A DNA stretch of 58,008 nt from Solirubrobacterales bacterium (GTDB lineage Bacteria > Actinomycetota > Thermoleophilia > Solirubrobacterales > JACPNS01), in contig JBOGYW010000002.1 in the NCBI GenBank assembly GCA_050696815.1, positions 1-58,008 on the forward strand, given 5' to 3'. Positions 11,996 through 46,478 of this stretch are shown here, in pieces. The position numbers and the translations under genes are program-made. The notes below the pieces were generated by a model. That model was not told where the DNA came from and did no database searches. It saw nothing but the letters and a program-made list of their open reading frames with translations. Within the stretch, counting starts at the first letter, position 1. Every line of letters begins with the position of its first letter.

Positions 11996-12880
11996 TCAGC
12001 CGGTGAAGTTCGGGCTGATGCGGCGCGCGGTGGTGCGCACGGCGCAGCGCTTGAACTTGCCGGTCTTGACGACGCGCGTGCCGTCGCTGAAGTACGTCGT
12101 GAGCTTGATCGAGTGCGTGCCGGACGAGTACTTGCCGCTGTCGATCGTGAACGACTTCGAACCCGAGTCAGAGCTGCCGCCGCTTGTCGTCGTCTTGACG
12201 GTCTTGCCGTCGACCTGAAGCACGAACTTGGTTGCCGTGCCGTTGGTGTACGACGACTTGATCGTGAACTTACGGCTCTGGCACTTCTTCGAAACCGACA
12301 GCGCCGAGTCCGGTGCGCCCTGCGGCGTCACGGGAGTCGTCGGCGGCAGCCAGATCTTCGAAGCCGAAGCCCACGAGACGCTGCCGTTCGGAATCGTGAC
12401 CGGGTCCCAAAGCGGCAGGCCGGTCTGGTCGTCGTACTCCATCGCCGTGTAGGCCTCAACTACGTCGGTACCGGCGTTCGAGCTGCTCCAGGTGAACGTC
12501 GCCTGGCCGTTGGCGTCGGTCACGCCCGAGCCCTTGGCTCCGGCGTTCGGGCCGCTCATGACGTCGAAGTACACGGTCAGGCCTGCGCCGGCCGCGACCT
12601 TCGTGACCTCCGGGTCGTTGCAGTAGACGTCGGGGTCGTTCGAACCGCTGTACTGCAGCGTCTTCGTCAGCGTCGCGGTGACGGTGTGCGAGGACTGCTG
12701 CGGCAGCTGGTTGGTGGCCGTCGGCGGGTTGAGCGTCAGGCAAATCTGCGTGTTGTGCGCGAATGCGCTGGTGGCGCCCGCAAGCATCGCGATCGCCGCG
12801 CTGAACAAAGCGAGCAGGAGAGCGATCGTCCGACGTGCGAACAGGGGGCGAGTCTGCGCCGAGTGCATGATCAAATCCAT
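11996..12880 (-). CDS. Secreted Ig-like-domain protein, paralog P2 (C-terminus ...RISPNFTG)
   Basis: Signal peptide LLLALFSAAIAMLAGATSAFA followed by H. Ig-like segment SHTVTATLT...LTVYFDVMSGPNAGAKGSGVTDANGQATFTWSSSNAGTDVVEA. C-terminal module KKCQSRKFTIKSSY...GKFKRCAVRTTARRISPNFTG aligns with P1. Confidence 0.75.
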   Translation of the reverse strand: MDLIMHSAQTRPLFARRTIALLLALFSAAIAMLAGATSAFAHNTQICLTLNPPTATNQLPQQSSHTVTATLTKTLQYSGSNDPDVYCNDPEVTKVAAGAGLTVYFDVMSGPNAGAKGSGVTDANGQATFTWSSSNAGTDVVEAYTAMEYDDQTGLPLWDPVTIPNGSVSWASASKIWLPPTTPVTPQGAPDSALSVSKKCQSRKFTIKSSYTNGTATKFVLQVDGKTVKTTTSGGSSDSGSKSFTIDSGKYSSGTHSIKLTTYFSDGTRVVKTGKFKRCAVRTTARRISPNFTG

Positions 12881-13084
12881 TTCTTTCTGGTGCCGAGTGT
12901 TTCCGGCTGAGATCAGCGGTCCGAGATGAAAATCCGAGATGTTGCTGCAAATCGCAGCATATGGTCCCCGAACAACTGATTCTGCCGAGTCAGTCGTTAC
13001 TACCGACTAGTCCACCCTAGCACCGGCTTGGTCGCGTGTCCAGCTGACAACCAAGGGATATTCCCGCAGTTTGCGGGCGCGGAG

Positions 13085-13120
13085 CTACCCGGTTGGCGGT
13101 AGCCGCCGCCGACCGGGTAG
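13085..13120 (-). terminator. GC-rich hairpin 20 nt after the P3 stop (terminator candidate, no U-tract)
   Basis: CTACCCGGT (13085-13093) pairs with ACCGGGTAG (13112-13120), with an inner GGCGG/CCGCC stem. A second small hairpin, CCCGCA-GTT-TGCGGG, lies just beyond it. Confidence 0.4.
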
Positions 13121-13139
13121 TAGGTCTCCGAGCGACGAG

Positions 13140-14228
13140 CTAGGTCGTGAACTTCAACTTTGCTGCCCTGCCCTTGTTCTTGCCCTTGTCGATCGCGTAA
13201 ACACTGAACTTGTGCTTGCCCGACTTCAGGCCCTTCGCCTTGTACGGCGACCGGCAGGTCTTGCTCTTGCTCTTGTCGAGCTTGCAATTGAAGGTCGAGC
13301 CCTTCTCGTTCGAGGAGAAGTAGATCTTCGATCCCTTGCGCTTCGTAATCGTGGTCTTCGGCGCCGTCGTGTCGGTGAACCTCGCGTCGATCGTCTTGTC
13401 GCCGTCCATCTTCACCGCGCACGGCGAGAAGTTGCAGCCGCCGCCCGTGAAGAGCTCAAAGTTCGATCCCGTAGCCGCGTTCGCCTGCAGCGCGACGATC
13501 GTGTTGTCACCGAAGACGACACTGCAGAGCGAGCCGCAGTTGACGCCGCCGACCGACGAGGTCACGGTGCCGCTGCCGTTGCCGGACTTCGTGATCGTCA
13601 GCGCCTGCGCGCCGGTGCTGAACGTCATCGCGAACTGCAGATCCTCGCCGTACAGCGACCATGGGGAGCCGGTCCAGTCGGCTTCAGATGTGCCGTTGTT
13701 CTGGTAGAAGAACGTGCCGCCCGGATAGGCGGTGTCGTTGTCGGTCGAGCGAAACCGGCCGGCGGCGCCGGCGCTGGCTTCAAAGTCCTTCGAGACGCTG
13801 AGGAACAGGACGTACCTGGTCGAAGGCACCAAGGCGATGCCGCCGGTGTTGAAGGTCAGTTCGGTGACGCCGATGCTGAAATCGGTTTCGCGAATACCGC
13901 TCTCGTACAGAGCCGAGCCAGTGGCCTTGCTCGTCCCGTCGTCCCAGGCGTAGACCTCTGCGCGGCTGAGCAGGGTGTTGGGAACGTTTTCGACCCTGAA
14001 CGTAAAGCTGGTCAGCTTCTGGTTCGGGTCGGCAGGGGACGTGATCGTCTGTCCGTACGTCGCCGTGTTCGGGACCGCGTAGCTGCTGATGAAATTGAGG
14101 TTCGCGTCGTCGCGTGTGTCGACGATGGTTGAACTTGCGTGGGCCGCGGGAACGACGAACAACGACAGCGCCGCGGCGAGGATAAGTGAGCGTTTGAGTG
14201 AGGTTTTCATAACGCGAAATCCTGCCAT
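13140..14228 (-). CDS. Secreted protein P3: N-terminal beta-rich domain + divergent InlB B-repeat-like domain + Lys-rich Ig-like C-terminal module (...KLKFTT)
   Basis: Signal peptide MKTSLKRSLILAAALSLFVVPAAHA (likely start ATG 14210). LTITKSGNGSGTVTSSVGGVNCGSLCSVVFGDNTIVALQANAATGSNFELFTGGGCNFSPCAVKMDGDKTIDARF matches the widespread G-x-G-x-V-x-S...C...C...F B-repeat-like pattern. The last ~77 aa resemble the toxin's Ig modules (FNCKLD...CRSPY...GKHKFSVYAID). Confidence 0.75.
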   Translation of the reverse strand: MAGFRVMKTSLKRSLILAAALSLFVVPAAHASSTIVDTRDDANLNFISSYAVPNTATYGQTITSPADPNQKLTSFTFRVENVPNTLLSRAEVYAWDDGTSKATGSALYESGIRETDFSIGVTELTFNTGGIALVPSTRYVLFLSVSKDFEASAGAAGRFRSTDNDTAYPGGTFFYQNNGTSEADWTGSPWSLYGEDLQFAMTFSTGAQALTITKSGNGSGTVTSSVGGVNCGSLCSVVFGDNTIVALQANAATGSNFELFTGGGCNFSPCAVKMDGDKTIDARFTDTTAPKTTITKRKGSKIYFSSNEKGSTFNCKLDKSKSKTCRSPYKAKGLKSGKHKFSVYAIDKGKNKGRAAKLKFTT

Positions 14229-14350
14229 ACCCGTCAGTCACTTAGCTATCGAACGTCCAAGAGAGCACGCTTTCTTCGCGTTTGCTCAACGGAGCAACTC
14301 GACAACCAGCGTTTTTTGGGTCGCTGCCGATGCGATTGCCGGCAGCGCAA

Positions 14351-14806
14351 TCAGTGGCGATACGGCTCTCTCTCGAGCTCCCGGATCTCTACGCCGCGGC
14401 ACACCACTTGAATCGAATGCCCGTCACCCTCCCAAAGGGCCTCGACCATGAGCGGCCGGAAATCATGCGCTTTGGCATGTCGATCAAGGATCAAAGAATC
14501 TGTTTCCGCGCGCAAGAGCGATATTTCCGTATAGCCCCAGCTCACCTGTTCGCGCTCGGCAATGAACTGGTCTGTCATTTCGTTGCGAAATCGGAACTCC
14601 AGAGTGTTCGCGCAAATCAACGACACCCGCAGCGGTTCCTCAACCACGGTTGTTTGGTCCTCACTCCACACGTAATGAATCGCTAGCTCGAAGTCCATTC
14701 CTGGATGCAGCATCCTGGCTTCTACAAGCATGCACTCCTCGAAACGCTTGTAGCGCTCAAGTTCAGCGGAGAGTTGTTCAGCGGTGGTGAGCAGTTTTTT
14801 ATTCAC
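14351..14806 (-). CDS. Candidate immunity protein for the RHS toxin (unknown family)
   Basis: Distal part of track ORF 14351..15334. GTG at 14806 overlaps the toxin stop by 8 nt; ATG 14833 and ATG 14731 are alternatives. Acidic, cytoplasmic-looking, about 150 aa: ...MDFELAIHYVWSEDQTTVVEEPLRVSLICANTLEFRF.... Noticeably more A/T-ending codons than its neighbours. Confidence 0.6.
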   Translation of the reverse strand: MNKKLLTTAEQLSAELERYKRFEECMLVEARMLHPGMDFELAIHYVWSEDQTTVVEEPLRVSLICANTLEFRFRNEMTDQFIAEREQVSWGYTEISLLRAETDSLILDRHAKAHDFRPLMVEALWEGDGHSIQVVCRGVEIRELEREPYRH

Positions 14807-17800
14807 GCAGATAAATGCCGTGCGAGCCTTCATTCGTACCTGGATCACGGCCGTACTCGTCAAGATACTGGCCGTGCCTGTTGCGCATACGGATCTCGGT
14901 GCCGCCTTCGCGGGGACGCATGCGCACCTGCTCTCCGCCGGGACCTTCAAACAGCGGACCTTTTCCATCATTCGACACGCGCTGCTTCCAGCCGCGCCGT
15001 GTAAGAATTTCTCGCACCTGAGCAGCGGTCTTGTCCCGCACCGAGCCAGTTTCAAATAGCTCACGCATTTCTGGACTCGCATCGCGCAATGCGCCTGGAA
15101 GTCCACCGGGCGGACGGGACGGCTCATCGCCACCGCGGCCAGACCCAGGCGGCGGGTCCTTGGGCTCCTTGGACAGGCCGGTTTTCTGCTTGAAAACCTC
15201 CCAATGCGTATGCACCATGGCCTTGGTCTGGTCCCACAAGTCGTACCAAGGATCGACTCCGCAGTCGAAACACGGGGAGCCCCCGGGGGGAAACGGGCGA
15301 GGCCTGTCGATCGCAGATCGCCCATCGAGGTCAAATTTTACCGACGGATCGTTCAGCGCGTACGCAAACGGATTCTGCGTTTGCGGGGAACTGCGTTCGC
15401 CCGGAAGGGGATCGCGCGAAACAAACCGCCCCGAACTCGGGTCGAAGATCCGCGCGCCCATGTGGATCTGATCAGTTCCATACATGGCGGAACGGCCGTG
15501 CGCACCGAGGTAGCCGAAAGAGTCGTCGTCCAGACCGCTTCCACCGCTGGCGCCGCCGATATCAAGATCGACACCAAACGGGTCGTAATCACGCACGTCT
15601 GAAAGGTCACCCGACTCGTTGAGATTCGCGAGCACCGATCCATGCTCGTCAACCAGCGGGTAGGTCGCCGACGCTGCGTTGACGTCGGTTTCGATCAGTC
15701 CACGCGGCCCGTATGCGTAAGCCTTCGAGCGCGTCGCCGCCGAGGTCGTTCCGTCGCCGACGTGAGTGGACTCCGCGACCGGACGATCGTCCAACTCGTA
15801 GTTGTACGTGCGCGTGACTGAATCGCCCGAGGTCTGGACCAACCGATTCAGCGCGTCGTACGAGAACGTCTGCTCGCCGTTCTGGAGTGAATCCTTGCCT
15901 GTCAGGCGATCCAGTGAGTCATACGCGTACGTCGTCGCGCCGGACGGTCCGGTGTCAGACGCTGTGCGACCCTGGTCGTCGTACGTGTACGTGTGCTCGC
16001 CGGGAGCGGACGTCATCTGGTTGAGAGCGTCGTAGGTGTACGCGTCACCGTTCTTCGTCAAACGATTGCCGGCCGCGTCGTACGTGTACGTATCCGCGTG
16101 GTCACCGAAATCGACGTCGGTCAAGCGGTCAAGCGCGTCGTACCCGTAGTCCTGAGTGCTCGTCGGCGTTTCGCGGTGCGTCGGGTTGCCGTTTGCGTCG
16201 TAGCGGTAGAAGAGCCGCGAGCGGAGCTCGCCGCTGCCGTTTCGCGAGTACGAGCGCGTCAACCGGTTCGCGAGGTCGTAGAAGTTCTGCTGGCGCAGAA
16301 CTGTCTTTGCCACGCCACCCGCCGCCGGACGCGTCGTTGTCCGCTCGATCAAGTTCCCGCTCCCGTCGTACGCGAAGCGGTGAACCCGGCCGTTCGGCAT
16401 CGTGACCGACGTGATGCGGTTTCGTGAGTCGTAGTCGAACTCGGTGGTTCCGCTGACATTTGTGCGCGACGTGACGTTGCCGTTCGCGTCGTAGCCGAAC
16501 GTCGTCGAAACTCCGAGCGCATCAGTCGCCGACTCCATTCGATCTGCGTCGTCGTATCCGAAATGGACCACTCGGTCGGCAGCGTCCTTCGCATCGGTCA
16601 GCCGGCCGTCGGCGTCGTAAGTGAACTCTTCGGTCGAATCGTCCGCGAGCGTGATGTTCTTTACATGGTTGAGTGCGTCGTACTCAAACTCGGTGGTCTC
16701 GCCTTCCACGTCCTTCGTCAGCAAGTTTCCGACGTCGTCGTATGTGTAGGTCGTCGTTAGGCCGAGTGGCTGCTCGACGACGGTCTGGTTTCCCGCCTCG
16801 TCGTATTGATAGGTCGTGACGTTGTCCCTCGGATCCGTTTTTCGAATCGCCTCGCTGTCCGCGTTGTACTCGTAGGTCGTTTCTCCGCCCTTGGCATCGA
16901 TGACCTTCGTGAGGTCTCCGGCGAGGTTGTATTCGAACTTCGTCGAGTGGCCCCGAGCGTCGGTTTCAGCGGTCTTGCGGCCCAGCACGTCGGAGGAATA
17001 AGTGACCGCCGCTCCCTCCGGACCAACTTCACGGACTACTTGCCCGTTCGCGTTGCGAATCGTGCGCCCGATGCCACCTCGTGCATCGGTTTCGCTAGCG
17101 ACCTCGCCGAACTCGTCGTAGCCGTAGCTCGCCGTGGTCTTCCCTTCGATGCCAGTGGTTGACAGCCGGCCGAGGCCGTCGTAGTCGGAAGTCGACTCAT
17201 TGCCGTTGGGGTCCGTCACCTTGGTGACATGCCCCGAGTCGTCGTAGTCAAACGAGGTCGTGCCTCCCTCTGGATCCTCGACCGACTCGACGTCTCCCAT
17301 CGGCAGGTGGGAGTACGTCGTCACGTGGTCCATCGGGTCGGTGACCGTTTCGACGTTTCCGTGCTCGTCATAGGTGTACGAGGTCTCGCCGTCCAACGCG
17401 TCGATCACGTGCTCGACGCGACCGGCGTCACCGTAGGTGTATTCGGTTCGGTTTCCATTCGCGTCCACCGTCGCCGAAAGCACCCCGGGTGCGTCGTACT
17501 CGAACGATGTCGACTCCGTCGCCCCACTGACCACCTTGTGTTCAGCCTGTAGATCGTTCGTGTCTTCGTCGTAGTCGTACGACGTCACCCGCCCGGTCGG
17601 GTCGGTTTCGGACGTCTTGTTGCCGTGCGTGTCGTAGGTGTACGTCGTCGTCCGGCCAGCGGCGTCGACAATCGACGTCAGTCGGTTGTTTGTGTAGGTG
17701 AGCGTCGATTTGCGCCCATCAGGCCGCACGACCGACGTGATGTTGCCGTTCGCGTCTCGGTGGTACTCGCTGCGGATCCCGCCCGGCTTCGAAACGGAAG

Positions 17801-20800
17801 TCACGTTTCCGTGCCCATCGACGCGATACAGCGTCGACTTGCCGGTTGCATCGGTGACACGCGTCGAACCATCGGAGTACTCGAAATCGAAGTGCTGGTC
17901 GGTGCCGATGTCCTGATGAACCACGCGTCCGAACTCGTCGTACTCGTTCTCGACGATCGTGCGCTCGTCGGCGTCGGTCGCGGAAACCATCATTCCGTTG
18001 TCCTCGTCGTAGCCGTACGCGACTCGGCCCTCTTCGGGGTTGGTGACTGCGGACAGGGAAGATCCGGCATGGTCGTAGAGCACCGTCCGGCCATTCGAAT
18101 CGGTCGCCGATTCGAGCATTCCGTCTTCGCCATAACTGAACGTGATCGACTCGCCGTCTGTGTTCGTCTCGCTGACGAGCTTGCCGTCGTCGTATGAGTA
18201 CGAGATTCGGTTGCCGCTCTTGTCAACCTCGTCGATGATCTCGCCGTCGAGCGTGTAGCGAGTTGTGTTATCGCCATACGGATCGGTGAGAACGCGAATG
18301 TCTCCGAGCGTGCCGTCATGCACGGCGGTGAGCTGCTCAGTGTGGCCGGCCGGTGCCAAGTAGCTGCCATCGGTTTGCCTCGTGAAGTCGTACGAGCGGC
18401 CATCGGCTTGGATGACGCGCACCGAATCGTTCCCAAGCGGGAACGCACCGGCTGATCCAGCCCACGACCAGCCTTGGCCGATGGAGGTCGTGCGGGGGTC
18501 ACGCGAGTTGTACGTTCGTTCGAGGGTCAGCTTCGGCCCGTGGCCGCTGACGGCGAGATCAGTCTTGTTGAGCACAAAGTTGCCAGTGCCCGGGTCAACG
18601 GGATCGCCGACCCATGAGCCCCTCCGGGCCCCAAGCGCGTCAAGCAGCGTCAGATAGTCGCTCGGATTGCAGAACTTCACCAAGACGTCTGGGTCGTTCT
18701 TGCACTGCTCGGCCGCGTGCTTCCAGTCCATGTTGTCAAGCGAGACCGTGATTTCGGGACAAGCTTCGCTGCATTCTCCTCGCTCAACTCCGGAGAAGAA
18801 CTCGTCATACGCGTCGTCTGTCGCAAGCCAAGTGACCTCCTGATTGAGCATGAAGTCGTCGATCGTCGAGATCGCGTTCTGTTCCTCGTCGTAGTACGTA
18901 TAGAGACAGGTAAGCGGAGTCAACGTGGTTTCAACGTTGCCCTGAGGCTCTCCGAGGTCGTTCCAACGAGTACCCAGATACGAAGAGCGCGTCGGGTACT
19001 GGTCGATCTCATACGGATCACCGGGTCTCACAACCCAACAACCGCCTGCAGGCAGGTCGAAATCCTGGTGCGTGTCGTTGTCTATCCCCCAGCACCCGTC
19101 GCCCGATCCGCCTCCGCACGCGCTCTCGCCGTTCCAGGCACGGTCAGTGCCTTTCATCACCATTCGCCCGTTGGCATTGTCGAACTGCCAACCGTTCACG
19201 TGCACGTCGTAGCCCGGGTCGTTTTCTCCAGGCCCACTGTGCAGCGACGAGTAGTCGCCACCGTGGAACAGAAACTTGAGATTCGAGATCAAGCCGGGAG
19301 CAGGCGAGTCCACTTCGAAGCTGTCGATGATGTTGAGCTGTAGTTCTCCGGTGCTGTTCGCGGGAGCAAAACCAAGCGTGCTCATGAACGCATGCCGCGA
19401 CGGCAGGATGCCGAACAGCTTCAGTGCGTCAATCGCGTCCTGACTGTTCCAGGGAGTCTCTTCCCCTTCGTCTCCGAGGGCGAGGTTCGCAACAGCGTGC
19501 TTCACGTTGTCCCGAGTCTTCGCGTTGAGCGTGTCGCCGCCCGGTTCGTGGTCTACGGCGTCTTCGTAGCCGGCCGTGCTCGCAACGACTGGCACCGAGA
19601 AGGATCGAACTACCGGCCGCGTCGCGGCGCCCGTCGCGCCGCGCTCACGAACAGCGAAAGTGTGATTGCCGGCCGGCAACTCGGGCGAGTCATACGGCGA
19701 TTCGCAGGCCGCGAAGGAATCGCTGTCGATCCTGCACTCGAAGCGCACGCCGACGCTCGAGGACTCGAAGCCAAACGCCGCGAACGAGCCGCTGACCTCC
19801 TCGTCGTCGGGACCGAACGTGAAGGAAATTGGGCTCGTTGTCGTCGGCTCTTCGCTGGTCGCCTCAGATGAGTCCACGTAGAAGTCGCGGACCTCGGTCG
19901 TCGCGGCCTTTCGCCGCACGCTCGGGCTGCGCACTTCGAGGCGGTGCTTGCCTTCCTCCAGGTCGCTGATGGCCAGAGACGGCGTGCAGATCTTGAAGTC
20001 CGAGCCATCGATCGAGCATTCGAGATCGATACCCGTCGGGTCGTCCGACTCGCTGAAGCTCGCGGGGGTGATGGTGATGTCGCCTGTCGGAAACACCATC
20101 GCGTCGGTCATCGGCTTCGTGGTCACAGCGGTCGCACCGGCGTCCTGGGAAGTGACGCTGATCGTGATGTGTTCGTGAGCCGCGACGTCGGGCCCGAACT
20201 CCAAATGTGCCGGCGACGCATCTTTGAGTCCATTGGCGATCGCACGCACGGCGAAAGTCTGCGGCCCAGACCAGCCAGTTGGCGGCTGTTCGTAGTTAGC
20301 TGCGTATGGGGACGTGCACGGCAGCCAATCGCCGTCATCGACACTGCATTCGAAATGCGCGCCGGCGATCGTCGAGTGGAAGGTGAACGTCGGCGAAGCT
20401 CCGTCGATCCTGCTTTCCGGATGACCGACGGTCAGCTCGGACGGAGGATCGAGAATCGTGTCGGGTCGTAGATCTTCGTCCACGGCGACCGTGAACGAGC
20501 GACTCGCCGGCGTGGCATCGGTCGGCCCGGCGGGGATACTGGCCGCGACGGTGAACGTGTGCTCGCCATCCTCGAAGTTGGCGATTTCGAGTGGCGGTTC
20601 ACATTCCGTCGGAGTTGCTTCGTCGAGCGAGCATTCAAATGTGACTCCAGAGGACGTAGCGTCAAAGTCAAATGTGACGTGGTCGCCGCTGACAGTTGAG
20701 TCTTCAGCCGGGCCGTCGGCGATCTCCGTGTCGACGCTCGAAGCCGTCGCCGCGGTCGAGCCGGTGGCGGTCACGTGACGCACGATTCCCCGACTCTTGT

Positions 20801-23800
20801 TGCCGTCGCCGTCGACGGAACGCACGGCAAATGTGCGCTCTGACAGCGAACTCGACGGAAGCTCGAACGGCGATGTGCAGGTCGCGAAGGCGCCCGAATC
20901 GACTGAACACTCGAAGGATGCAGTCCAGGCGGGCGCGCCGAACGAGTACTCGATCGCGCCGACGGTGACGGTGTCGCCGTCGGCGGGTCCAGCGGTGATC
21001 GTCGGCAGCGCCGGCGGTGCAGTCACCACGAACAGGGCCTCGGCTGGAGTCTGGTCTGTTGCACCGGAGATCGATGCCCGCACCGCAACCGTGTGGTTGC
21101 CAACCGGCGAAGCCGAGCCGGTCGCAAGAGTCAGCTTGTTCGGCGACGAGCAGGCGACCCAGCTCTCCACGTCGATCTTGCATTCGTAGGTCGCGTCGGC
21201 GTCTGACGAGCTGAACTCGATCGTCGGCGTAGCGTTGCTGCTTCTCGCCTCAGGTGCCACGTCGATCGACGTCTCAGGCTCAACCGGATCAAGCGTCGAG
21301 ACCCAAGAGATCGTCGCGGGTGTCGTCTCTGAGCGGCCGTCGTAGCTGGCTCGCACCGAGAAGGTCTGAATGCCCGGCTGGTTGATTCCCTGAATCTCGG
21401 GGTCGCCCGGGTTGCACCTCACCCAAGGCCGGCTGTTCAGCCTGCATTCGCGCTCGATGCCTGCCGGCATTTCATGACCGTCGGCCCAACTCGTGTAATA
21501 CAACGACGGGAGCCAGTTGATCGAGCTGAAGTCGATCCACGAAGGATCGGGGTTGGCGTGGTTCGTGATGCAGGCGATCTCGGAATTGACGTCGGAGGGG
21601 TCCGGGTCGTACACGACCTGATCTTCGGCCAGGCTTGTGTTCCCAACTTCGTCAACGCCGTAGACAATGAAGTTTGCGCGGCAGACATCTAGGTCGGTCG
21701 CCACGTATGGCGACTCACACGGTTCGAGTTCTCCTCCGTTGAAGCCACATTCGTAATGGTCGATGTCAGACGCCGACGAATGAAACTCAAACTGATGCGA
21801 CGACGACGTCTCGACTTCGCCGCCATCGCGCGGATTGTCGATCGCGACTCCAGGTTCGGTGGTGTCCAGCGTGAAGTTGAACGTGTGCGTATCACCGATG
21901 TGCGTTCCATTCGACTGCTTGGCCCACAACTGGATCTCGTACGTGCCCTCGTTCCAACTGTTGTTGACCGACAACGGGATCGAACAGTTTTGATTGACGC
22001 TGCTCGTTGTCGACTCTGTGCCTTGAACATGGCAGCCGATACCCGGCACGCTAAACGCGGTGTCAACATCGAACCCTCCGTTGCCAGGTCCGATGACCGA
22101 TGGCACCCCGTCAGGGAACTGCAGCACGGTTGCGGGGTCGTAAACCCTGAACGAACTTCCGACGCCAACGTCCGAATTGCCCAGCGTGTCGGTTGCGCGA
22201 ACCTTGAAGTAGTGGAGTCCATAAGCGATCGAGGTGACCTCGTAGGGCGAGGTGCAGCTTTCGAAGGTGCCTTCATCAAGCGCGCACTCATAGCTGGCCG
22301 AGGCGTCGTCCGAATAAAAGCTGGCGCTACGGGACATACCGGACTGATACATCGACGGGTAGCTTGCCCAGGAAACGGCCGGCGCTTGAACATCGACGGA
22401 GAAATGCCGGACTGTCGGCGTCGGATCAACTCCACCGTGGCCGTCCACAGCGCGTACTACGAGGATCTTGGAGCCTGTCCCGCCCCAGCCTCCGCCGGGC
22501 GTGAACGGATTGCTACAAGACGAGAAGTCCTCGTCTTCCGGGTTCGAGAGATTGACTGCGCACTCGTAGGAAACCCCGGTGTCGCTGGAAAAGCCAAAGG
22601 CCGCTCCATCATTTGCCGTCGTCCCACTCTCTGCCACGCCACTGCTGATCGCGGTCGAGGGCGGATACGCCACGTACGACCGCTCACAGTCCGTCAGCGT
22701 GTCGGCACCGCCGTCATCGACCACCGCGAAGTCATATCCATCCCCACAGTCGGCGGAGTTCGCGTGTCCTTCTCGCACGAGCAGTTCGTCGTCGCCGGTG
22801 CCACCCTCCAGATTCTCGACGTCAGATCCGATCTGATCCTGTTCCCCGCTCTCGCCGTCGTTTGCCACGCCATCGAGGGAGAGGCTCAGCGCATTGGACC
22901 GTGACGAATAGTCCGCGGTGTCGTTGCCCGAGCCACCCGCGATCGTGTCTTGGCCGCTGCCAGGGTCCAGCGAATCGGCTCCGTTTCCACCAGACAGAGA
23001 ATCGTCGCCTCCAACGCCATAAACGGTGTCGTTGCCGTCATTTCCAGAAAGCGTGTTCGCTCCCGAACTTCCAGTCAAGGTGTCGCTGCCGGAGCCGCCA
23101 GCGATTCCTTCAACGTCGCTGGCGAGGTTGTCGCCCTCGCCGCTTTCGCCATCGTTCGCCGTACCGTCGATCGACGCGCTCACCGCCGCTGTTCGCGATG
23201 CATAGGTCGCGGTGTCGGTGCCTCCGTCGCCGTTGACCACGTCGGCGCCGAGACCCGGCTCAACCGAGTCGTTCCCGCTCCCGCCGGAAATCGTGTTGCT
23301 GGAGGAGTTACCGGTCAAGGCGTCGGCATAGTCCGACCCGGTGAGATTCTCGATCTGAGTGATTGTGTCTGAGCCGGCGCCGACGGTGTTCTGGCTTGAC
23401 GTGGTCGCCAGCGAGACGGTTACGGCAGACGAAGCAGAACCGTACGTCACCGTGTCCGTGTCGCTTCCGCCAGTAAGCGTGTCGTTGCCGGAAAGGCCCT
23501 CAATGCTGTCGTCGCCTGCACCGCCAGAGAGCGTGTTTGCACTCGCGTCACCTGTCAGCGTGTCGCCATAGCCCGAGCCGGTGAGATTCTCGAATGTCGC
23601 GAGCGTGTCCGAGCCGGCGCCGCCAGTGCTCTGGCTGGTCGAGACCGCAAGCGAAACCGATACGCCGGCAGCAGCCGCCGCGTAAGTGGCCGTGTCCGTG
23701 CCGCCACCGCCGGTCAGCGTGTCGTTACCTGCGAGGCCTTCGACCGAGTCGTTGCCATTGCCACCCTGGATGTCGTTGGCAGACGAGCTACCTGTCAGCG

Positions 23801-25781
23801 TGTCGTTGCCCGAGCCGGTCGTGATGTTCTCGACGTCTCCGCGCACGTTGTCGCCCTCGCTCGCGGCACCGTCGTTGGCGGTACCGTCGAGCGTGACGGT
23901 GAGGTCGCTCGTGCGCGTCGAGTAGTCCACTCGGTCATCGCCGTTGTCGCCGTACACGTCGTCGGCGGCGAGACGCGGGTTGATCGAGTCGTTGCCGTCG
24001 CCGCCGTGAATCGTGTTCGCCAAATCGTCGCCACCGAGCGTGTCGCCGTACGCCGACCCGGTCAGGTTCTCCACCTGGGTGATCGTGTCCGTACCGGCGC
24101 CCGTGGTGTTCTGCGAAGTCGTCGTAACCAGGGCGACGGTCACCGCAGAAGCCGCGTTCGCGTAGGTGACCAGGTCCGTGCCGCCGCCACCGGTGATCGT
24201 GTCATCCCCGGCACCGCCTTCGAGCGTGTCGTTTCCGTTGTTGCCCGTCAGGCCATCGTTGCCCGACGTGCCGGTGAGCGTGTCGTCGTAGTCGCTGCCC
24301 CACACTCGTTCGGCGCCGCTGATCGTGTCGGTGCCTGCGCCGCCGGTGTTCTGCGCGCTGGAGTTAGCGAGGCTGACCGTGACTGCCGAGCCCGCGGTCG
24401 AATAATCCACACGGTCGGTTCCGGAACTGCTGTCAAGGATGTCGTCGCCGTCGCCGCCGGTCAGGAAGTCATCGCCGCCACCGCCATAGATCGAGTCGTC
24501 ACCGCCCGCGGCGCTGATCGTGTCACTGCCGGTTCCGCCGGTCAGTGCGTTGGCGGAACTGTTGCCAGTTAGAAAGTCGTTGCCGGATCCCGTGATCGCG
24601 TTCTCGACGTCGGACGCGATGTTGTCGTTTTCACCGGACTCGCCGTCGTTGGCGGTATCGGTCAGTGAGACGTTGACGTTGGCGGTGCGGCCCGAGTAGT
24701 CAACCGTGTCGACGCCGGCGTTGCCGTTGACGGTGTCGGTGCCTGTGCCTGGGTCTACAAGGTCGTTGCCGTTGCTGCCGCTGATCGTGTCGTTGCCGCC
24801 GGCGCCGCTTAGCGTGTCGTTGCCGTCATTGCCAGTAAGTCCGTCGGCGCTCGAGCTGCCGGTTAGCGTGTCGTCGTACGCGCTGCCCCACAAGCGCTCG
24901 CAGCCGCTGATCGTGTCGTTGCCCGCGCCAGCGGTGTTTTGCGAACTTGTTGTCGCAAGCGAAACCGTCACGGCAGAACCCGCGCTTGAGTAGTCGTCGC
25001 GGTCCGTGCCAGAGCCACAGGAAATGGTGTCGTCACCATCGCCGCCGGTCAGGAAGTCGTCGTCGCTGCCGCCGGTCACTGTGTCTGCGCCAGCCGAGCC
25101 GCCGATCGTGTCGCTGCCTGCGCCGCCGTCGAGCGAGTTGGCAGAGCTGTTGCCCGTCAGAAAGTCGTTGCCCGTACCACCGGTCGCGTTTTCGACGTCG
25201 CTCGCGACGTTGTCGTTCTCGCCCGAAGCGCCGTCATTAGCCGTGTCCGTGAGCGAGACGTTCAGGTTCGCGCTGCGTGCGGAGTAGTCGGCGGTGTCTG
25301 CCCCAGAGCCACCGTTGATCGTGTCCGTCGCTGTGGAGGTGATGATCGTGTCGTTGCCCCCGCCGGCGTTGATCGTCGCTCCAACGGAAGAAGTCGACCG
25401 CAACGTGTCGTTGCCGTCGTCGCCATTGATCGTGATCGCGGTGATGCCGGTCGAAGAGCACGTCGCCGTGTGCGAGTCGACTGATGTGCAGCCCGAAGTC
25501 ACGCCCAAGGTGGCGCCGCTGTCGGCGATCGTGAAGGTCGAGCCGGAAAGCGAGACGGTGACATCGTTCGCTTCGCCGCTTGCCGCGGTTAAGACGAGAG
25601 TGTTCCCGGATGTTCCTGCCGAGCTCGCGAACGATGTTGACGCAGCGATTAGTCCGACGAGAGCAAACAGGACAGAAGCGCTCGCAAAGGAGGCCAGCCG
25701 GGCGATCCTCGTGACAGACGCGCGCAGGGCACAGCGGTGATGCCCGCCGGTGCGTTTTCCGAAGCAGTGCGAAGTCTTCAA
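14799..25781 (-). CDS. Giant secreted polymorphic toxin (3660 aa): Sec signal, RTX-type Ca-binding repeats, about 11 Ig-like Cys-pair modules, RHS/YD-repeat shell, variable C-terminal toxin (WapA-like)
   Basis: Uninterrupted ORF from TTG 25781 to TAA 14799. Motifs read directly from the translation; see the sub-features below. Confidence 0.9.
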   Translation of the reverse strand: MKTSHCFGKRTGGHHRCALRASVTRIARLASFASASVLFALVGLIAASTSFASSAGTSGNTLVLTAASGEANDVTVSLSGSTFTIADSGATLGVTSGCTSVDSHTATCSSTGITAITINGDDGNDTLRSTSSVGATINAGGGNDTIITSTATDTINGGSGADTADYSARSANLNVSLTDTANDGASGENDNVASDVENATGGTGNDFLTGNSSANSLDGGAGSDTIGGSAGADTVTGGSDDDFLTGGDGDDTISCGSGTDRDDYSSAGSAVTVSLATTSSQNTAGAGNDTISGCERLWGSAYDDTLTGSSSADGLTGNDGNDTLSGAGGNDTISGSNGNDLVDPGTGTDTVNGNAGVDTVDYSGRTANVNVSLTDTANDGESGENDNIASDVENAITGSGNDFLTGNSSANALTGGTGSDTISAAGGDDSIYGGGGDDFLTGGDGDDILDSSSGTDRVDYSTAGSAVTVSLANSSAQNTGGAGTDTISGAERVWGSDYDDTLTGTSGNDGLTGNNGNDTLEGGAGDDTITGGGGTDLVTYANAASAVTVALVTTTSQNTTGAGTDTITQVENLTGSAYGDTLGGDDLANTIHGGDGNDSINPRLAADDVYGDNGDDRVDYSTRTSDLTVTLDGTANDGAASEGDNVRGDVENITTGSGNDTLTGSSSANDIQGGNGNDSVEGLAGNDTLTGGGGTDTATYAAAAAGVSVSLAVSTSQSTGGAGSDTLATFENLTGSGYGDTLTGDASANTLSGGAGDDSIEGLSGNDTLTGGSDTDTVTYGSASSAVTVSLATTSSQNTVGAGSDTITQIENLTGSDYADALTGNSSSNTISGGSGNDSVEPGLGADVVNGDGGTDTATYASRTAAVSASIDGTANDGESGEGDNLASDVEGIAGGSGSDTLTGSSGANTLSGNDGNDTVYGVGGDDSLSGGNGADSLDPGSGQDTIAGGSGNDTADYSSRSNALSLSLDGVANDGESGEQDQIGSDVENLEGGTGDDELLVREGHANSADCGDGYDFAVVDDGGADTLTDCERSYVAYPPSTAISSGVAESGTTANDGAAFGFSSDTGVSYECAVNLSNPEDEDFSSCSNPFTPGGGWGGTGSKILVVRAVDGHGGVDPTPTVRHFSVDVQAPAVSWASYPSMYQSGMSRSASFYSDDASASYECALDEGTFESCTSPYEVTSIAYGLHYFKVRATDTLGNSDVGVGSSFRVYDPATVLQFPDGVPSVIGPGNGGFDVDTAFSVPGIGCHVQGTESTTSSVNQNCSIPLSVNNSWNEGTYEIQLWAKQSNGTHIGDTHTFNFTLDTTEPGVAIDNPRDGGEVETSSSHQFEFHSSASDIDHYECGFNGGELEPCESPYVATDLDVCRANFIVYGVDEVGNTSLAEDQVVYDPDPSDVNSEIACITNHANPDPSWIDFSSINWLPSLYYTSWADGHEMPAGIERECRLNSRPWVRCNPGDPEIQGINQPGIQTFSVRASYDGRSETTPATISWVSTLDPVEPETSIDVAPEARSSNATPTIEFSSSDADATYECKIDVESWVACSSPNKLTLATGSASPVGNHTVAVRASISGATDQTPAEALFVVTAPPALPTITAGPADGDTVTVGAIEYSFGAPAWTASFECSVDSGAFATCTSPFELPSSSLSERTFAVRSVDGDGNKSRGIVRHVTATGSTAATASSVDTEIADGPAEDSTVSGDHVTFDFDATSSGVTFECSLDEATPTECEPPLEIANFEDGEHTFTVAASIPAGPTDATPASRSFTVAVDEDLRPDTILDPPSELTVGHPESRIDGASPTFTFHSTIAGAHFECSVDDGDWLPCTSPYAANYEQPPTGWSGPQTFAVRAIANGLKDASPAHLEFGPDVAAHEHITISVTSQDAGATAVTTKPMTDAMVFPTGDITITPASFSESDDPTGIDLECSIDGSDFKICTPSLAISDLEEGKHRLEVRSPSVRRKAATTEVRDFYVDSSEATSEEPTTTSPISFTFGPDDEEVSGSFAAFGFESSSVGVRFECRIDSDSFAACESPYDSPELPAGNHTFAVRERGATGAATRPVVRSFSVPVVASTAGYEDAVDHEPGGDTLNAKTRDNVKHAVANLALGDEGEETPWNSQDAIDALKLFGILPSRHAFMSTLGFAPANSTGELQLNIIDSFEVDSPAPGLISNLKFLFHGGDYSSLHSGPGENDPGYDVHVNGWQFDNANGRMVMKGTDRAWNGESACGGGSGDGCWGIDNDTHQDFDLPAGGCWVVRPGDPYEIDQYPTRSSYLGTRWNDLGEPQGNVETTLTPLTCLYTYYDEEQNAISTIDDFMLNQEVTWLATDDAYDEFFSGVERGECSEACPEITVSLDNMDWKHAAEQCKNDPDVLVKFCNPSDYLTLLDALGARRGSWVGDPVDPGTGNFVLNKTDLAVSGHGPKLTLERTYNSRDPRTTSIGQGWSWAGSAGAFPLGNDSVRVIQADGRSYDFTRQTDGSYLAPAGHTEQLTAVHDGTLGDIRVLTDPYGDNTTRYTLDGEIIDEVDKSGNRISYSYDDGKLVSETNTDGESITFSYGEDGMLESATDSNGRTVLYDHAGSSLSAVTNPEEGRVAYGYDEDNGMMVSATDADERTIVENEYDEFGRVVHQDIGTDQHFDFEYSDGSTRVTDATGKSTLYRVDGHGNVTSVSKPGGIRSEYHRDANGNITSVVRPDGRKSTLTYTNNRLTSIVDAAGRTTTYTYDTHGNKTSETDPTGRVTSYDYDEDTNDLQAEHKVVSGATESTSFEYDAPGVLSATVDANGNRTEYTYGDAGRVEHVIDALDGETSYTYDEHGNVETVTDPMDHVTTYSHLPMGDVESVEDPEGGTTSFDYDDSGHVTKVTDPNGNESTSDYDGLGRLSTTGIEGKTTASYGYDEFGEVASETDARGGIGRTIRNANGQVVREVGPEGAAVTYSSDVLGRKTAETDARGHSTKFEYNLAGDLTKVIDAKGGETTYEYNADSEAIRKTDPRDNVTTYQYDEAGNQTVVEQPLGLTTTYTYDDVGNLLTKDVEGETTEFEYDALNHVKNITLADDSTEEFTYDADGRLTDAKDAADRVVHFGYDDADRMESATDALGVSTTFGYDANGNVTSRTNVSGTTEFDYDSRNRITSVTMPNGRVHRFAYDGSGNLIERTTTRPAAGGVAKTVLRQQNFYDLANRLTRSYSRNGSGELRSRLFYRYDANGNPTHRETPTSTQDYGYDALDRLTDVDFGDHADTYTYDAAGNRLTKNGDAYTYDALNQMTSAPGEHTYTYDDQGRTASDTGPSGATTYAYDSLDRLTGKDSLQNGEQTFSYDALNRLVQTSGDSVTRTYNYELDDRPVAESTHVGDGTTSAATRSKAYAYGPRGLIETDVNAASATYPLVDEHGSVLANLNESGDLSDVRDYDPFGVDLDIGGASGGSGLDDDSFGYLGAHGRSAMYGTDQIHMGARIFDPSSGRFVSRDPLPGERSSPQTQNPFAYALNDPSVKFDLDGRSAIDRPRPFPPGGSPCFDCGVDPWYDLWDQTKAMVHTHWEVFKQKTGLSKEPKDPPPGSGRGGDEPSRPPGGLPGALRDASPEMRELFETGSVRDKTAAQVREILTRRGWKQRVSNDGKGPLFEGPGGEQVRMRPREGGTEIRMRNRHGQYLDEYGRDPGTNEGSHGIYLRE
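14802..15317 (-). other. C-terminal polymorphic toxin tail (172 aa) of the RHS protein, family not recognised
   Basis: Begins right after NPFAYALNDPSVKFDLDGR, which is the RHS core end and equivalent to the canonical DPxGL boundary. A Pro/Gly-rich linker is followed by a basic ~85-aa tail: TAAQVREILTRRGWKQRVSNDGKGPLFEGPGGEQVRMRPREGGTEIRMRNRHGQYLDEYGRDPGTNEGSHGIYLRE. Confidence 0.6.
15318..18611 (-). other. RHS / YD-repeat shell and RHS-associated core
   Basis: Entry motif GDPVDPGTGNFVLNKTDLAVSGHGPKLTLERTYNS. Dozens of Y-D-x-x-G-N/R-x-x-x-x-x-D repeats (e.g. YTYDTHGNKTSETDPTGRVTSYDYD). End motif GARIFDPSSGRFVSRDPLPGE...NPFAYALNDP. Confidence 0.88.
18612..19586 (-). other. Unassigned ~320-aa Cys-rich module between the Ig repeats and the RHS shell
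   Basis: aa ~2066-2390: ...HGGDYSSLHSGPGENDPGYDVHVNGWQFDNANGRMVMKGTDRAWNGESACGGGSGDGCWGIDNDTHQDFDLPAGGCWVV...ECSEACPEITVSLDNMDWKHAAEQCKNDPDVLVKFCNPSDY. About 10 Cys; no motif I can name. Confidence 0.4.
19587..22664 (-). other. About 11 tandem Ig-like modules with a conserved Cys pair
   Basis: Recurrent pattern F-x-F-x-S-x(4-8)-[FY]-E-C-x-[LVI]-D-x(5-8)-C-x-S-P-x(8-15)-G-x-H-T-F-x-V-R-A-x-D. Examples: TFECSLDEATPTECEPP...GEHTFTVAA; RFECRIDSDSFAACESPY...GNHTFAVRE. Confidence 0.7.
22692..25439 (-). repeat. RTX-type (hemolysin-type Ca-binding) nonapeptide array built from two alternating super-modules
   Basis: G-G-x-G-x-D-x-[LIF]-x runs throughout. Five copies of D-Y-S-x-R-x-x-x-[LV]-x-V-S-L-[TD]-x-T-A-N-D-G-x-S-G-E-x-D-N...S-D-V-E-N alternate with five copies of S-A-V-T-V-S-L-A-x-x-S-x-Q-N-T-x-G-A-G-x-D-T-I...E-N-L-T-G-S. 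aa ~165-350 and ~360-545 (nt 24147..25289) are a clear ~190-aa tandem duplication. Confidence 0.8.
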
Positions 25782-26143
25782 TTGTCCGATCCCTTCCGAG
25801 CCGAGCGAGCCGAGCCTGAGCCAAACCAGGCGAACTACTTCATTCGCGTCACGTGGTTTTGGTCACTACGTTTGCGTAACGTAACGTCCAAAGGGACTGA
25901 AAAGTTGCGGCGCGCGCGCCGTTGTTTTGAACCCCGCGCAAATTGCGATCGAAACGTCAAGTATTCAGCGCTTGAGCGAACCGATGCGTTGACACCGTTT
26001 GCCATCTGTCGTTGCTAGCAGCGCCGAATCCTCGCGACGCTGGCTCGGCACAAGCGGGCGCAAATCTGCGTTTCGGTTTCCACGCGCCCAACACGCGAAG
26101 AACGTTCTACAGCGGAAAACGGCAGTCCAAAGCCAGAATCAAA

Positions 26144-42193: not shown

Positions 42194-43855
42194 GTGAGCA
42201 CCCCGCGCAAACGGCCGACGGCTGCCGCATTGACTCTCGCCGGGATTCTCTTCACCGGACTGCTGCTGCGGCTCTGGGGCATTCGCAACGGACTGCCGGT
42301 CGTCTACAACCTCGACGAGTACGCCCACTTCGTCGTCTCGGCCGTGAACATGTTCGGCGGCGGGCTGAACCCGCACTACTTCCAGAACCCACCGGCCTAC
42401 ACGTATCTGCTGCACGTGCTCTTCTCGATCGCCTACGCGGTGCCGCCGATCGGCTCGCTCGGGCTCGCCGTGCACCACGCGTTCGAAGGCGACCCGACAA
42501 CGCTCTACGTGATCGCGCGCGTCACTAGCGCGCTGATGGGTCTCGGCGCCGCCTGGATCCTGTACTTCGTCGGCAAGAAGCTCTACGGCGTCGCCGTCGG
42601 CCTGGTCACCACGGCGCTGCTCACCTTCACCTTCCTACCCGTCTTCTACAGCCACGTCGCGCTCAACGACGTGCCGACGCTGCTGCCGCTCTGTCTCGGG
42701 CTGTTCGGCCTGGCGGGGATCGTCAAGCGCGGCAAGCTGCTCGACTACCTGATCGCGGGCCTGGGCCTGGGCCTCGCGACCGCTACTAAGTACACCGCGG
42801 CGGCGCTGGCGGTCGGAATCTTCACCGCTTGGCTGATCCGCGTCTGGGGCGACCGCGAGGCCTTCCGGCGCGAGGCGCCCTACCTGATCGCCGCCGGCGC
42901 GCTTTCGCTGGCCGTCTTCTTCATCGCCAACCCCTACGCGCTGCTCGATCCGCACAAGTTCGTCTACGACGTGCGCCGCCAGCGCGACATCAGCGCCGGC
43001 GTCTCGAAGCTCGGCACCGACGACACCACGGGCTGGGCCTACTACGTCAAGACGCTGACCTGGGGCTACGGCTGGCTGCCGCTGCTGACAGCGCTCGGCG
43101 GCGCGGCGCTTGCGCTCAAGCGCGACTGGCGCAAGACGCTCCCGTTCGTCGTGACCGCCCTGCTGGTCTGGCTGTTCATGGGCCACCAGGAGCGCTTCTA
43201 TGCGCGCTGGCTGATGCCGGTCTATCCGATCCTCGCGCTCTTCACCGCCTACGCGATCGTCGAGCTCGGCAGACTTGCGGGCACAAAGTGGCGCACCGCC
43301 CCCACCGTTGCGGTCGCGGCGATCGTGCTCGCCCAGCCGCTCGTAACCGTGGTCCACAACGACATCGTGCTGACGAAGACCGACACGCGTGCGCTGGCGA
43401 AGAGCTGGCTGTTGGAGAACGTCGGCGCCGGCAAGAAGGTCGCGATCGAGCTGATCGGGCCGAAGCCGTACTTCAACGTCGGCGGGGCACGCGGCGGCGC
43501 GAAGGAGTTCGATTACTACCCGCTGCCGACCGGCAGCGAGGTCGAGCGGTACGCGCAGTCGCTGAAGCCTGAGCTGCTGAACGCTTACGCGGCGGGCGGC
43601 TACTGCTACGTCGTCGTCGGCAGCATCCAAAAGGGCCGCGTAACCAAGGATCCCTCGAAGGCGCCGGGCGCCGCGGCTTACTACAAGGCGCTCGACGCCC
43701 AGGCCGAGAAGGTCGCGAGCTTCAGCCCGGTCAAATCCGGCACCAAACTGCCGACCTTCAACTTCGACATCTCGTACAACTGGTACCCGTTGAACTACAC
43801 CCGGCCGGGCCCACAGATCGACATCTACCGGCTGAAAACGGGCGACTGCAAGTAA
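42194..43855 (+). CDS. GT-C fold membrane glycosyltransferase (GT39 / ArnT / PMT_2-like)
   Basis: N-terminal LLRLWGIRNGLPVVYNLDEYAHFVVSA...YFQNPPAYTY, followed by more than 10 TM segments and a soluble C-terminal domain. Confidence 0.7.
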   Translation: MSTPRKRPTAAALTLAGILFTGLLLRLWGIRNGLPVVYNLDEYAHFVVSAVNMFGGGLNPHYFQNPPAYTYLLHVLFSIAYAVPPIGSLGLAVHHAFEGDPTTLYVIARVTSALMGLGAAWILYFVGKKLYGVAVGLVTTALLTFTFLPVFYSHVALNDVPTLLPLCLGLFGLAGIVKRGKLLDYLIAGLGLGLATATKYTAAALAVGIFTAWLIRVWGDREAFRREAPYLIAAGALSLAVFFIANPYALLDPHKFVYDVRRQRDISAGVSKLGTDDTTGWAYYVKTLTWGYGWLPLLTALGGAALALKRDWRKTLPFVVTALLVWLFMGHQERFYARWLMPVYPILALFTAYAIVELGRLAGTKWRTAPTVAVAAIVLAQPLVTVVHNDIVLTKTDTRALAKSWLLENVGAGKKVAIELIGPKPYFNVGGARGGAKEFDYYPLPTGSEVERYAQSLKPELLNAYAAGGYCYVVVGSIQKGRVTKDPSKAPGAAAYYKALDAQAEKVASFSPVKSGTKLPTFNFDISYNWYPLNYTRPGPQIDIYRLKTGDCK

Positions 43856-45452: not shown

Positions 45453-46478
45453 CTAACGCGCGCGCGGATCGAAGCGCGCGACCTGATCGTCACGCGAGAG
45501 CGGCAGCCAGACGCGGTTGTCGTTGAAGTCCACACCGGTTGGAGCGTTGCCGATGCCGATCGGAAGGGCGTCGCGGCGGGCGGTCTTTGCGTCGATCCGC
45601 AGAAGCGTGTCGCCGTCGACGCTCGCCACCCAGATGCTGCCGCCGCCGGCCGTGATCGCCTGCGGGCGGATCGGCACGGGGATCGGCTTGCCGACGCGCT
45701 TGCCGGTTTTCAAGTCGATGCGCCAGACACTCGATGGCGGGATCCGCTGGCTGCCGCCGGTCAGCGCGGAGGGTCCGGCCTCGCCTGAGGTGTCGCGGGC
45801 GCTGGTGACCCAGAGGTAGCCGTCGCTCACGACCAGCGCGGTCGGCAGGCCGCCGACCTTGATCGGATCGCCGACCCGCTTGCCCGTCGTCGGGTCGATC
45901 TTGTCCACCAGTCCGTCGCGGATGTTCGCGACCCATACGTAGCCCGCGCCGGTCGCGACGCGGTACGGGGGGCCGCTCAGCTTGATGCGCTCACCGACGC
46001 GCTTGCCGGTGTCTGGATCGAGCTTGCTCAGGGACTGATTGCGGATCGATGTGACCCACTCGTAGCCAAAGCCGTGCGTAAGCCCGAACGGGCGGTTGTC
46101 GACCTTGATGCGATCGACCACCTTGCGCGTCGACGGGTCCACCCGCACCAGCTCGTCGTTCTGGAAGCCGGCGACCCAGACCTTGCCGAAGGCGACATCC
46201 AGCGCGTACGGCGCCGGGCTCGTGAACACCGGCTTCTTGCCGATCTTCCTGCCGGTCCGCGGGTCGAGCTTGGTCAGCACGCTGCCGGCCATGCTCGTGA
46301 CCCAGATTCCGCCTTCGCCGGCGGCGATCGCGATCGGCCGCTTCGGCACATCGGTCGTCTGCCCGGTGAACGGCAGTACGACGATCTCGGCGTCGTTGCG
46401 CACGGCGTGGCCGGGCTTGTCTTCGCCGCAGCCGGTCAGCATCGCCGCCACGACCAAGTAGAGAGCGAGGCGCTTCAT
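45453..46478 (-). CDS. Seven-bladed beta-propeller lipoprotein (NHL/Vgb-like repeats)
   Basis: Start moved to ATG 46478 (MKRLALYLVVAAMLTGC lipobox; ATGA overlap with the upstream gene). Seven repeats of P-x-x-[LIV]-x-x-G-x-G-x-[LIV]-W-V-[TA]-[SN]...D-P-x-T-G-K. Confidence 0.75.
   Translation of the reverse strand: MKRLALYLVVAAMLTGCGEDKPGHAVRNDAEIVVLPFTGQTTDVPKRPIAIAAGEGGIWVTSMAGSVLTKLDPRTGRKIGKKPVFTSPAPYALDVAFGKVWVAGFQNDELVRVDPSTRKVVDRIKVDNRPFGLTHGFGYEWVTSIRNQSLSKLDPDTGKRVGERIKLSGPPYRVATGAGYVWVANIRDGLVDKIDPTTGKRVGDPIKVGGLPTALVVSDGYLWVTSARDTSGEAGPSALTGGSQRIPPSSVWRIDLKTGKRVGKPIPVPIRPQAITAGGGSIWVASVDGDTLLRIDAKTARRDALPIGIGNAPTGVDFNDNRVWLPLSRDDQVARFDPRAR

Follow-up and report, generated by a model that had tools for sequence, protein, structure and literature searches.

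Work on Sec-dependent RHS toxins has centred on Firmicutes. In the model of WapA, a Sec signal is followed by an N-terminal wall-binding part, a DUF6531-Rhs region and a PreT-CT part, and WapA loci of the Streptococcus suis type carry adjacent srtB and secF-like genes (PMC12704120). How a protein of more than 300 kDa crosses the Gram-positive wall is an open question (PMC12704120). Two other groups of proteins share parts with the one described here. T6SS Rhs effectors (RhsA, Tse5, RhsP) and TcB-TcC cocoons have a YD-repeat cage with an N-terminal plug, and the aspartyl autoprotease of their RHS core frees the enclosed C-terminal toxin. T1SS RTX adhesins and toxins (SiiE, LapA, MARTX, CyaA) carry long GGxGxD arrays and tandem Ig-like modules as a stalk, in an acidic chain predicted to fold only with calcium. 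In T1SS, the C-terminus exits first and the C-proximal RTX repeats fold with external calcium, ratcheting the chain out. RTX is mentioned only as T1SS toxins by Zhang et al. (2012), and no RTX-RHS fusion is described in the searchable literature.

We have analysed a stretch of 58,008 nucleotides (positions 1 to 58,008 of contig JBOGYW010000002.1, assembly GCA_050696815.1, Solirubrobacterales bacterium), hereafter called the window, which contains a giant ORF. From N- to C-terminus, its product is predicted to comprise a signal, an RTX block, 11 Ig-like modules, an orphan module, a DUF6531-RHS cage, an RHS core, a linker and a toxin domain of ~100 aa. It is probably an RHS polymorphic toxin that a monoderm actinobacterium exports by Sec and directs, with a WapA-like logic, against competing bacteria. 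A WapA-style, Sec-exported reading and this domain order had already been put forward in an initial annotation, and both find support in HMM matches and in the recurrence of the toxin/immunity pair at other loci.

With WapA of Bacillus subtilis and S. suis, the window protein shares the DUF6531-RHS cage, the RHS core, a pre-toxin linker, a variable C-terminal toxin and an immunity gene directly downstream; the N-terminal Sec signal, predicted here by hydropathy, and a monoderm host, assumed here from taxonomy, would be further common traits. WapA differs by its wall-binding domain and its srtB/secF-like neighbours, neither of which is present in the window locus. No LysM, SLH, LPXTG or wall-binding repeat is detected in aa 1-2391 with Pfam and NCBIfam, and no sortase, srtB or SecF/SecDF-like gene is found among the ~40 window ORFs scanned. 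The window protein has instead ~980 aa of RTX, the 11 Ig-like modules and a 329-aa orphan module, is ~1.5 times longer than WapA, and its host is a Thermoleophilia actinobacterium, not a Firmicute. As it has neither the wall-binding part nor the srtB/secF-like neighbours, we do not file it as a member of the WapA family.

Unlike T1SS RTX proteins, the window protein has its RTX repeats at the N-terminus, behind a predicted Sec signal, and they stop at ~aa 1030 of 3660, its C-terminus being an RHS-caged toxin. A C-terminal T1SS secretion signal just past the RTX repeats is absent from the protein, and no gene for an ABC transporter, a membrane fusion protein (MFP) or an outer-membrane factor (OMF) is found among the ~40 window ORFs. 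As both the C-terminal signal and the transporter genes are missing, it is not a T1SS RTX protein. In contrast to T6SS Rhs effectors and Tc toxins, whose type of plugged cage and core it shares, it has a predicted Sec signal, an actinobacterial host and no PAAR, VgrG, chaperone, TcA or TcB parts; in particular, Pfam reveals no PAAR, LXG or WXG domain and no VgrG-binding N-terminus.

The window protein was also compared with 79 metagenomic loci, those whose cage resembles its own most closely (33% identity or less), which contain 52 RHS ORFs. Counted by regular expression, the RTX nonapeptide motif occurs 25 times in the window protein and never in these 52 ORFs, none of which matches its RTX, Ig, orphan or N-terminal parts. 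Within this limited sampling, RTX and RHS are combined in 0/52 related RHS ORFs and in 0/107 relatives of the Ig array. As a general scheme, Sec export of a caged toxin with an immunity partner is already known; what appears new, in a sampling that is limited, is the RTX-Ig-RHS build, a toxin/immunity family without a name and the orphan module.

Reading frame and architecture of the giant protein

A single uninterrupted minus-strand ORF had been described from TTG 25781 to TAA 14799, and the ORF listing gives the same frame of 3660 aa, that is, a 10,980-nt coding sequence (14799..25781) for a chain of ~390 kDa. TTG 25781 is the sole in-frame start upstream of the hydrophobic segment, and a Shine-Dalgarno-like motif, GGAAGGGA, lies ~8 nt 5' of it. 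By our own estimate (~62% GC, stop frequency ~0.03 per codon), 3660 codons would stay open by chance with a probability of ~e^-107. GC content by codon position follows a coding pattern, with a GC3 of 0.76 vs ~0.87 in neighbouring genes. The DNA repeats within the ORF, tandem as well as dispersed, are short or at most 77% identical, and are old and diverged; as direct repeats of this kind offer no substrate for it, collapse of repeats during assembly is unlikely.

A profile search of the protein against Pfam and NCBIfam matches the RTX block, the RHS repeats and the RHS core that had been read from the translation, as well as DUF6531, and only three Pfam families match it at E<0.01. The predicted features are collected in Table 1.

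Table 1. Predicted features of the giant ORF and of the gene that follows it (coordinates in the window)
Feature	Residues (aa)	Coordinates	Strand	Evidence or remarks
TTG start and Sec-type signal	1-52	25626..25781	-	basic n-region, hydrophobic core aa 29-47, SFA/SSAG
Beta-rich lead-in and RTX calcium-binding nonapeptide block	57-1035	22677..25613	-	Pfam PF00353
Eleven tandem ~92-aa Ig-like modules	1036-2062	19596..22676	-	conserved Cys pair ECxxD...CxSP
Orphan 329-aa module, 8 Cys	2063-2391	18609..19595	-	between stalk and RHS plug
DUF6531, N-terminal domain of RHS cage	2392-2466	18384..18608	-	PF20148 7e-16
RHS/YD-repeat shell	2467-3398	15588..18383	-	PF05593 2e-93, TIGR01643 1.7e-74
RHS repeat-associated core, ending ...NDPSVKFDLDGR	3399-3488	15318..15587	-	TIGR03696
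Pre-toxin linker	3489-3558	15108..15317	-	non-conserved; CxxC 3504-3507, Pro/Gly-rich stretch
Predicted C-terminal toxin domain	3559-3660	14802..15107	-	77 phmmer homologues, polymorphic-toxin family without name
Predicted cognate immunity gene, 151 aa		14351..14806	-	GTG start overlaps toxin stop (GTGAATAA)

At the N-terminus, the basic n-region and the hydrophobic core initially noticed are both present: a K/R/H-rich stretch is followed by the core (Kyte-Doolittle 2.19), which is the only hydrophobic 19-mer of the whole protein, and then by the SFA/SSAG site. This Sec-type signal is assigned by eye and by hydropathy, and is compatible with either a cleaved signal peptide or a signal anchor. 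The G-G-x-G-x-D block behind it is recognised by Pfam HemolysinCabind (2.7e-62, 18 stretches), and its NCBIfam matches are to serralysin and RTX C-terminal models. It is built of ten super-units of ~80-100 aa each, of two alternating types, and is very acidic (D+E 16%, K+R 1.6%).

The Ig-like modules, estimated at about eleven by the initial annotation, are indeed 11 in number, with their first Cys at positions 1074, 1166, 1250, 1345, 1446, 1534, 1625, 1717, 1812, 1922 and 2016. Big_13 reaches only 22.8 bits on the giant protein, below the Pfam cut-off of 27. As homologous arrays, found in 107 relatives (P0001-P0107), carry precomputed matches to Y_Y_Y (PF07495) or Big_13 (PF19077), the module is a divergent relative of Big_13/Y_Y_Y; its profile also matches, weakly, structures of SiiE BIg and PKD. 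These Ig-array proteins of Actinomycetota and relatives have the same ~90-aa Cys-pair module in arrays of at least 10, the best matches being 27-32% identical over as much as 98% of the Ig region. They are secreted proteins whose other domains include cupredoxin, arylsulfatase, subtilisin and lectin, and RHS repeats are found in none of the 107. A Pfam RTX match is present in P0065 only, and P0077 matches the window RTX block by local phmmer; among the relatives found, at least two further proteins thus have a stalk that combines RTX with an Ig array.

The Cys-rich module that follows had been left unassigned, and it matches nothing in Pfam, in PDB sequences, in GTDB genomes or in a word-indexed search of 5.8 billion clusters. 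Its single-sequence AF2 model is unusable (pLDDT 34.5), and a role in receptor binding is a guess.

As to the RHS part, the DPVDPGTGNF motif, described as the entry to about 1000 aa of YD repeats, lies at aa 2393, at the very start of DUF6531, and the repeats themselves are found by RHS_repeat in 15 stretches. The end of the core had also been located correctly: Rhs_assc_core covers aa 3399-3487 with 37.4 bits, against a cut-off of 32.5, and ...FDLDGR ends at aa 3488. This core end is the expected boundary of autoproteolysis; since its final motif is DLDG and not the usual DPxG, autoproteolysis is an assumption.

Such a composite protein could, in principle, result from an assembly chimera, in which the genes of an RTX-Ig adhesin and of an RHS toxin would have been mis-joined in frame, or from a pseudogene or an unexpressed gene. 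The DNA comes from an uncultured organism, the exact 3660-aa protein is absent from the public gene index and is on no public contig, and the orphan module, which has no relatives, lies right at the junction. This explanation is nevertheless very improbable, given that the whole coding sequence is a single frame with HMM matches along its length, that there is no long or near-identical repeat for mis-joining, that GC is uniform across the parts (0.60-0.65), and that the GC3 value with its coding pattern and the Shine-Dalgarno-like motif are those of a gene. The ORF thus appears to be real and to encode a genuine 3660-residue secreted toxin of a soil actinobacterium.

The C-terminal tail and the adjacent predicted immunity gene

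The protein had been described as closed by a 172-aa tail. This length is borne out (aa 3489-3660), but the tail divides in two, and only its last ~100 aa form the predicted toxin domain. Word-indexed cluster search with the tail gives nothing and exhaustive phmmer is needed, which yields 77 cluster representatives, 34 of them with E <=1e-10. The best-scoring stretch starts no earlier than query residue 59 (aa 3546 of the protein) in 72/77 matches, and 72/77 cover the last ~115 query residues or fewer. In all 77 proteins, which are 51-2507 aa long, the match is located at the extreme C-terminus. Among the 65 relatives scanned, 16 have a PT-HINT, nine an RHS_repeat and one a PT-TG scaffold. The toxin domain is therefore a portable cassette, which PT-HINT, RHS and PT-TG scaffolds carry at their C-terminus. 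The longest of these relatives, P0168 (L084 917..10958), is a DUF6531-RHS-PT-HINT toxin of 2507 aa whose N-terminus looks like a signal or a transmembrane segment; its gene is preceded by an LGFP-repeat gene, which suggests an actinobacterial contig, and followed by an IS element. With it, the toxin domain would have a second carrier of the Sec-type RHS kind, this one without RTX.

The toxin domain belongs to no Pfam family and gives only noise in NCBIfam, and neither the tail nor the immunity protein matches PDB sequences. Eight positions are near-invariant in the trimmed family alignment (R35, E62, R65, R69, R76, N79, D86 and H99), and all are kept in the window protein, as R3590, E3617, R3620, R3624, R3631, N3634, D3641 and H3654. 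An AF2 model built from the family alignment (pLDDT 91, pTM 0.83) shows three short helices, then four strands. Foldseek finds nothing significant for this model in the PDB (best E 0.87, TM <=0.39) and nothing at E<0.2 in BFVD. The barnase, BECR and HicA-like toxin folds, which the sequence pattern had suggested, are unsupported, as Foldseek matches none of them in the PDB.

A nuclease, most likely an RNase, is our tentative candidate for the activity, with a little less than an even chance of being correct. It is suggested by the small size of the domain, the basic tail (K+R 15.7%), the conserved R/E/R/R/R/N/D/H set and the cytoplasmic immunity protein. That a model of such high confidence matches no fold is, on the other hand, evidence against the known nuclease folds.

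The 151-aa ORF that overlaps the toxin stop is similar (BLASTP 3e-8) to the gene located 3' of the toxin homologue P0114. It is homologous to, and can be aligned with, the genes that follow P0114, P0144 and P0130, each of which overlaps the toxin stop by 4 nt. The W-G...E motif is kept in this 4-way alignment, in which E24, G36, W90, G91, E94 and E126 are conserved, and the 151-aa protein is without a signal peptide. From its position and conservation, 14351..14806 is predicted to be the cognate cytoplasmic immunity gene. Its GC content is 0.544, vs 0.60-0.65 in the giant ORF and 0.67 in the flanks, and the toxin/immunity pair looks like a recently exchanged cassette.

This overlapping gene was not part of the initial annotation, nor was the Ig module of the neighbouring secreted protein (see below). 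An inverted repeat is found just 3' of the immunity gene stop (14318..14346; 7-bp arms GCTGCCG ... CGGCAGC, 10-nt loop), with a T6 run before it on the plus strand; it is not a canonical terminator on either strand, and promoter and terminator scans at the locus give nothing informative. At the other loci, an orphan PT-HINT fragment and an Imm50 gene (L086 6481..7576) lie 3' of P0130 and its immunity gene, in a typical array of spare toxin/immunity cassettes, and a McrBC-type restriction system with an EVE domain (L082 7180..10543) adjoins the RHS toxin/immunity pair of P0114. The window itself has no spare toxin cassette and no further RHS or RTX piece, its sole extra match being the Ig module in the next gene.

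The toxin could also be aimed at eukaryotes (protists, nematodes, fungi or insects), in which case the RTX and Ig parts would serve as adhesins to the host surface in the manner of MARTX or Tc toxins. Many anti-eukaryotic toxins are found among RTX and RHS/Tc proteins, and a toxin fold without match, to which no activity is assigned, would fit this view. It is made very improbable by the conserved, translationally coupled immunity gene that accompanies the toxin family at four loci, by the PT-HINT and PT-TG scaffolds on which this family is found, typical of interbacterial polymorphic toxins, and by the orphan PT-HINT cassette with Imm50 at one of the homologous loci. An action against competing bacteria is the reading that we retain.

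Host and genomic neighbourhood

The thiolase encoded at 48099..49253 is 82-87% identical to thiolases of three MAGs of the Solirubrobacterales (Thermoleophilia, Actinomycetota). The window shows synteny with two of these MAGs (L002 and L004) over ~5 kb, at ~74-78% DNA identity, and the third (L003) aligns with it in two blocks, at 71-81%. Cultured Solirubrobacterales are Gram-positive, and from the taxonomy of these nearest MAGs the host is taken to be monoderm. The initial annotation had noted that no T1SS, T6SS or T7SS gene occurs in the window, and none is indeed found in the ~40 flanking ORFs with Pfam and NCBIfam scans. The paradox that it implied, of RTX repeats without T1SS, largely dissolves: as Sec export alone reaches the outside of a monoderm cell, the missing T1SS, T6SS and T7SS genes are not paradoxical.

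The flanks of the locus consist of chromosomal housekeeping genes, including purE/purK, ctaG, glpX and genes of acyl-CoA metabolism, and a divergent DUF1015 gene adjoins the giant ORF on its upstream side. From ~12000 to 26000, GC is 0.60-0.65, except for the immunity gene, vs 0.667-0.673 in both flanks, which, like the lower GC3 of the giant ORF, would fit an island acquired between ctaG and the DUF1015 gene. The product of the next gene past the immunity gene (13140..14228, minus strand) has 362 aa and a signal peptide of its own; its last ~85 aa are the Cys-pair Ig module of the giant ORF (FNCKLD...CRSPY), and its remainder belongs to no Pfam family. Between this gene and ctaG, on the same strand, a 294-aa ORF (11996..12880, minus strand) shows a weak Big_1 Ig-like match (7.9e-5, below threshold) and may belong to a cluster of surface proteins.

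Elsewhere in the window, two beta-propeller-type proteins are presumably secreted, one NHL/ScyF-like (56482..57987, minus strand; 1.7e-35, far below the model cut-off) and one SGL/DUF6923-like (45453..46508, minus strand). A homologue of protein O-mannosyltransferases of the PMT family (GT39-like; 42194..43855, plus strand) fits an actinobacterial host and could bear on the glycosylation of Sec-exported proteins.

Proposed export and display, and significance

For a Sec-exported toxin with WapA-like logic, the following sequence of events can be proposed. The signal peptide would take the unfolded ~390-kDa chain through SecYEG, N-terminus first. The acidic RTX block would be disordered in the low-calcium cytoplasm and would fold into beta-rolls on meeting external Ca2+. 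Once folded, the RTX and Ig modules could form a stalk of some tens of nanometres, carrying the RHS cage through or past the cell wall. The RHS core would cut after ...FDLDG(R), leaving the linker and the toxin enclosed in the cage until contact with a target, perhaps via the orphan module, frees the toxin, which would then enter the target cytoplasm. The 151-aa protein would protect the producer and its kin from within their cytoplasm. Our best reading is that the RTX-Ig stalk stands in place of the wall-binding domain.

As neither a wall-binding domain nor srtB/secF-like neighbours are present, the protein could alternatively be released rather than stay attached to the cell. Signal peptidase would then free the whole RTX-Ig-RHS protein, which would find its targets alone, much as a bacteriocin or a fused BC capsule of the Tc type does. 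Besides the missing wall anchor, sortase motif and wall-binding domain, the AxA-like site SFA/SSAG after the hydrophobic core agrees with such a release, and Sec-exported diffusible antibacterial proteins are known in Gram-positives (PMC12582261). This is nonetheless rather unlikely, as domains of the TcA or colicin type, for receptor binding or membrane translocation, are not detected, as the known Sec-dependent RHS toxins (WapA) act from the cell surface (PMC12704120), and as a long stalk is most sensible with one end held at the cell.

A bolder possibility, for which the odds are lower still, is that the N-proximal RTX block acts as a Sec-coupled calcium ratchet for the 390-kDa cargo, as the mirror image of T1SS, and that the caged toxin and its immunity protein represent a new fold and a new activity. 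If this were true, such a ratchet would let monoderm bacteria export giant RHS toxins.

For the crossing of the wall, the locus would represent an actinobacterial solution that relies on a very different N-terminal apparatus, with RTX repeats, a stalk of Ig modules and the orphan module. A compact toxin/immunity pair is also revealed, whose toxin lies outside Pfam and NCBIfam and is without a structural relative among solved structures. The activity of the toxin and the role of RTX in Sec export are both directly testable.
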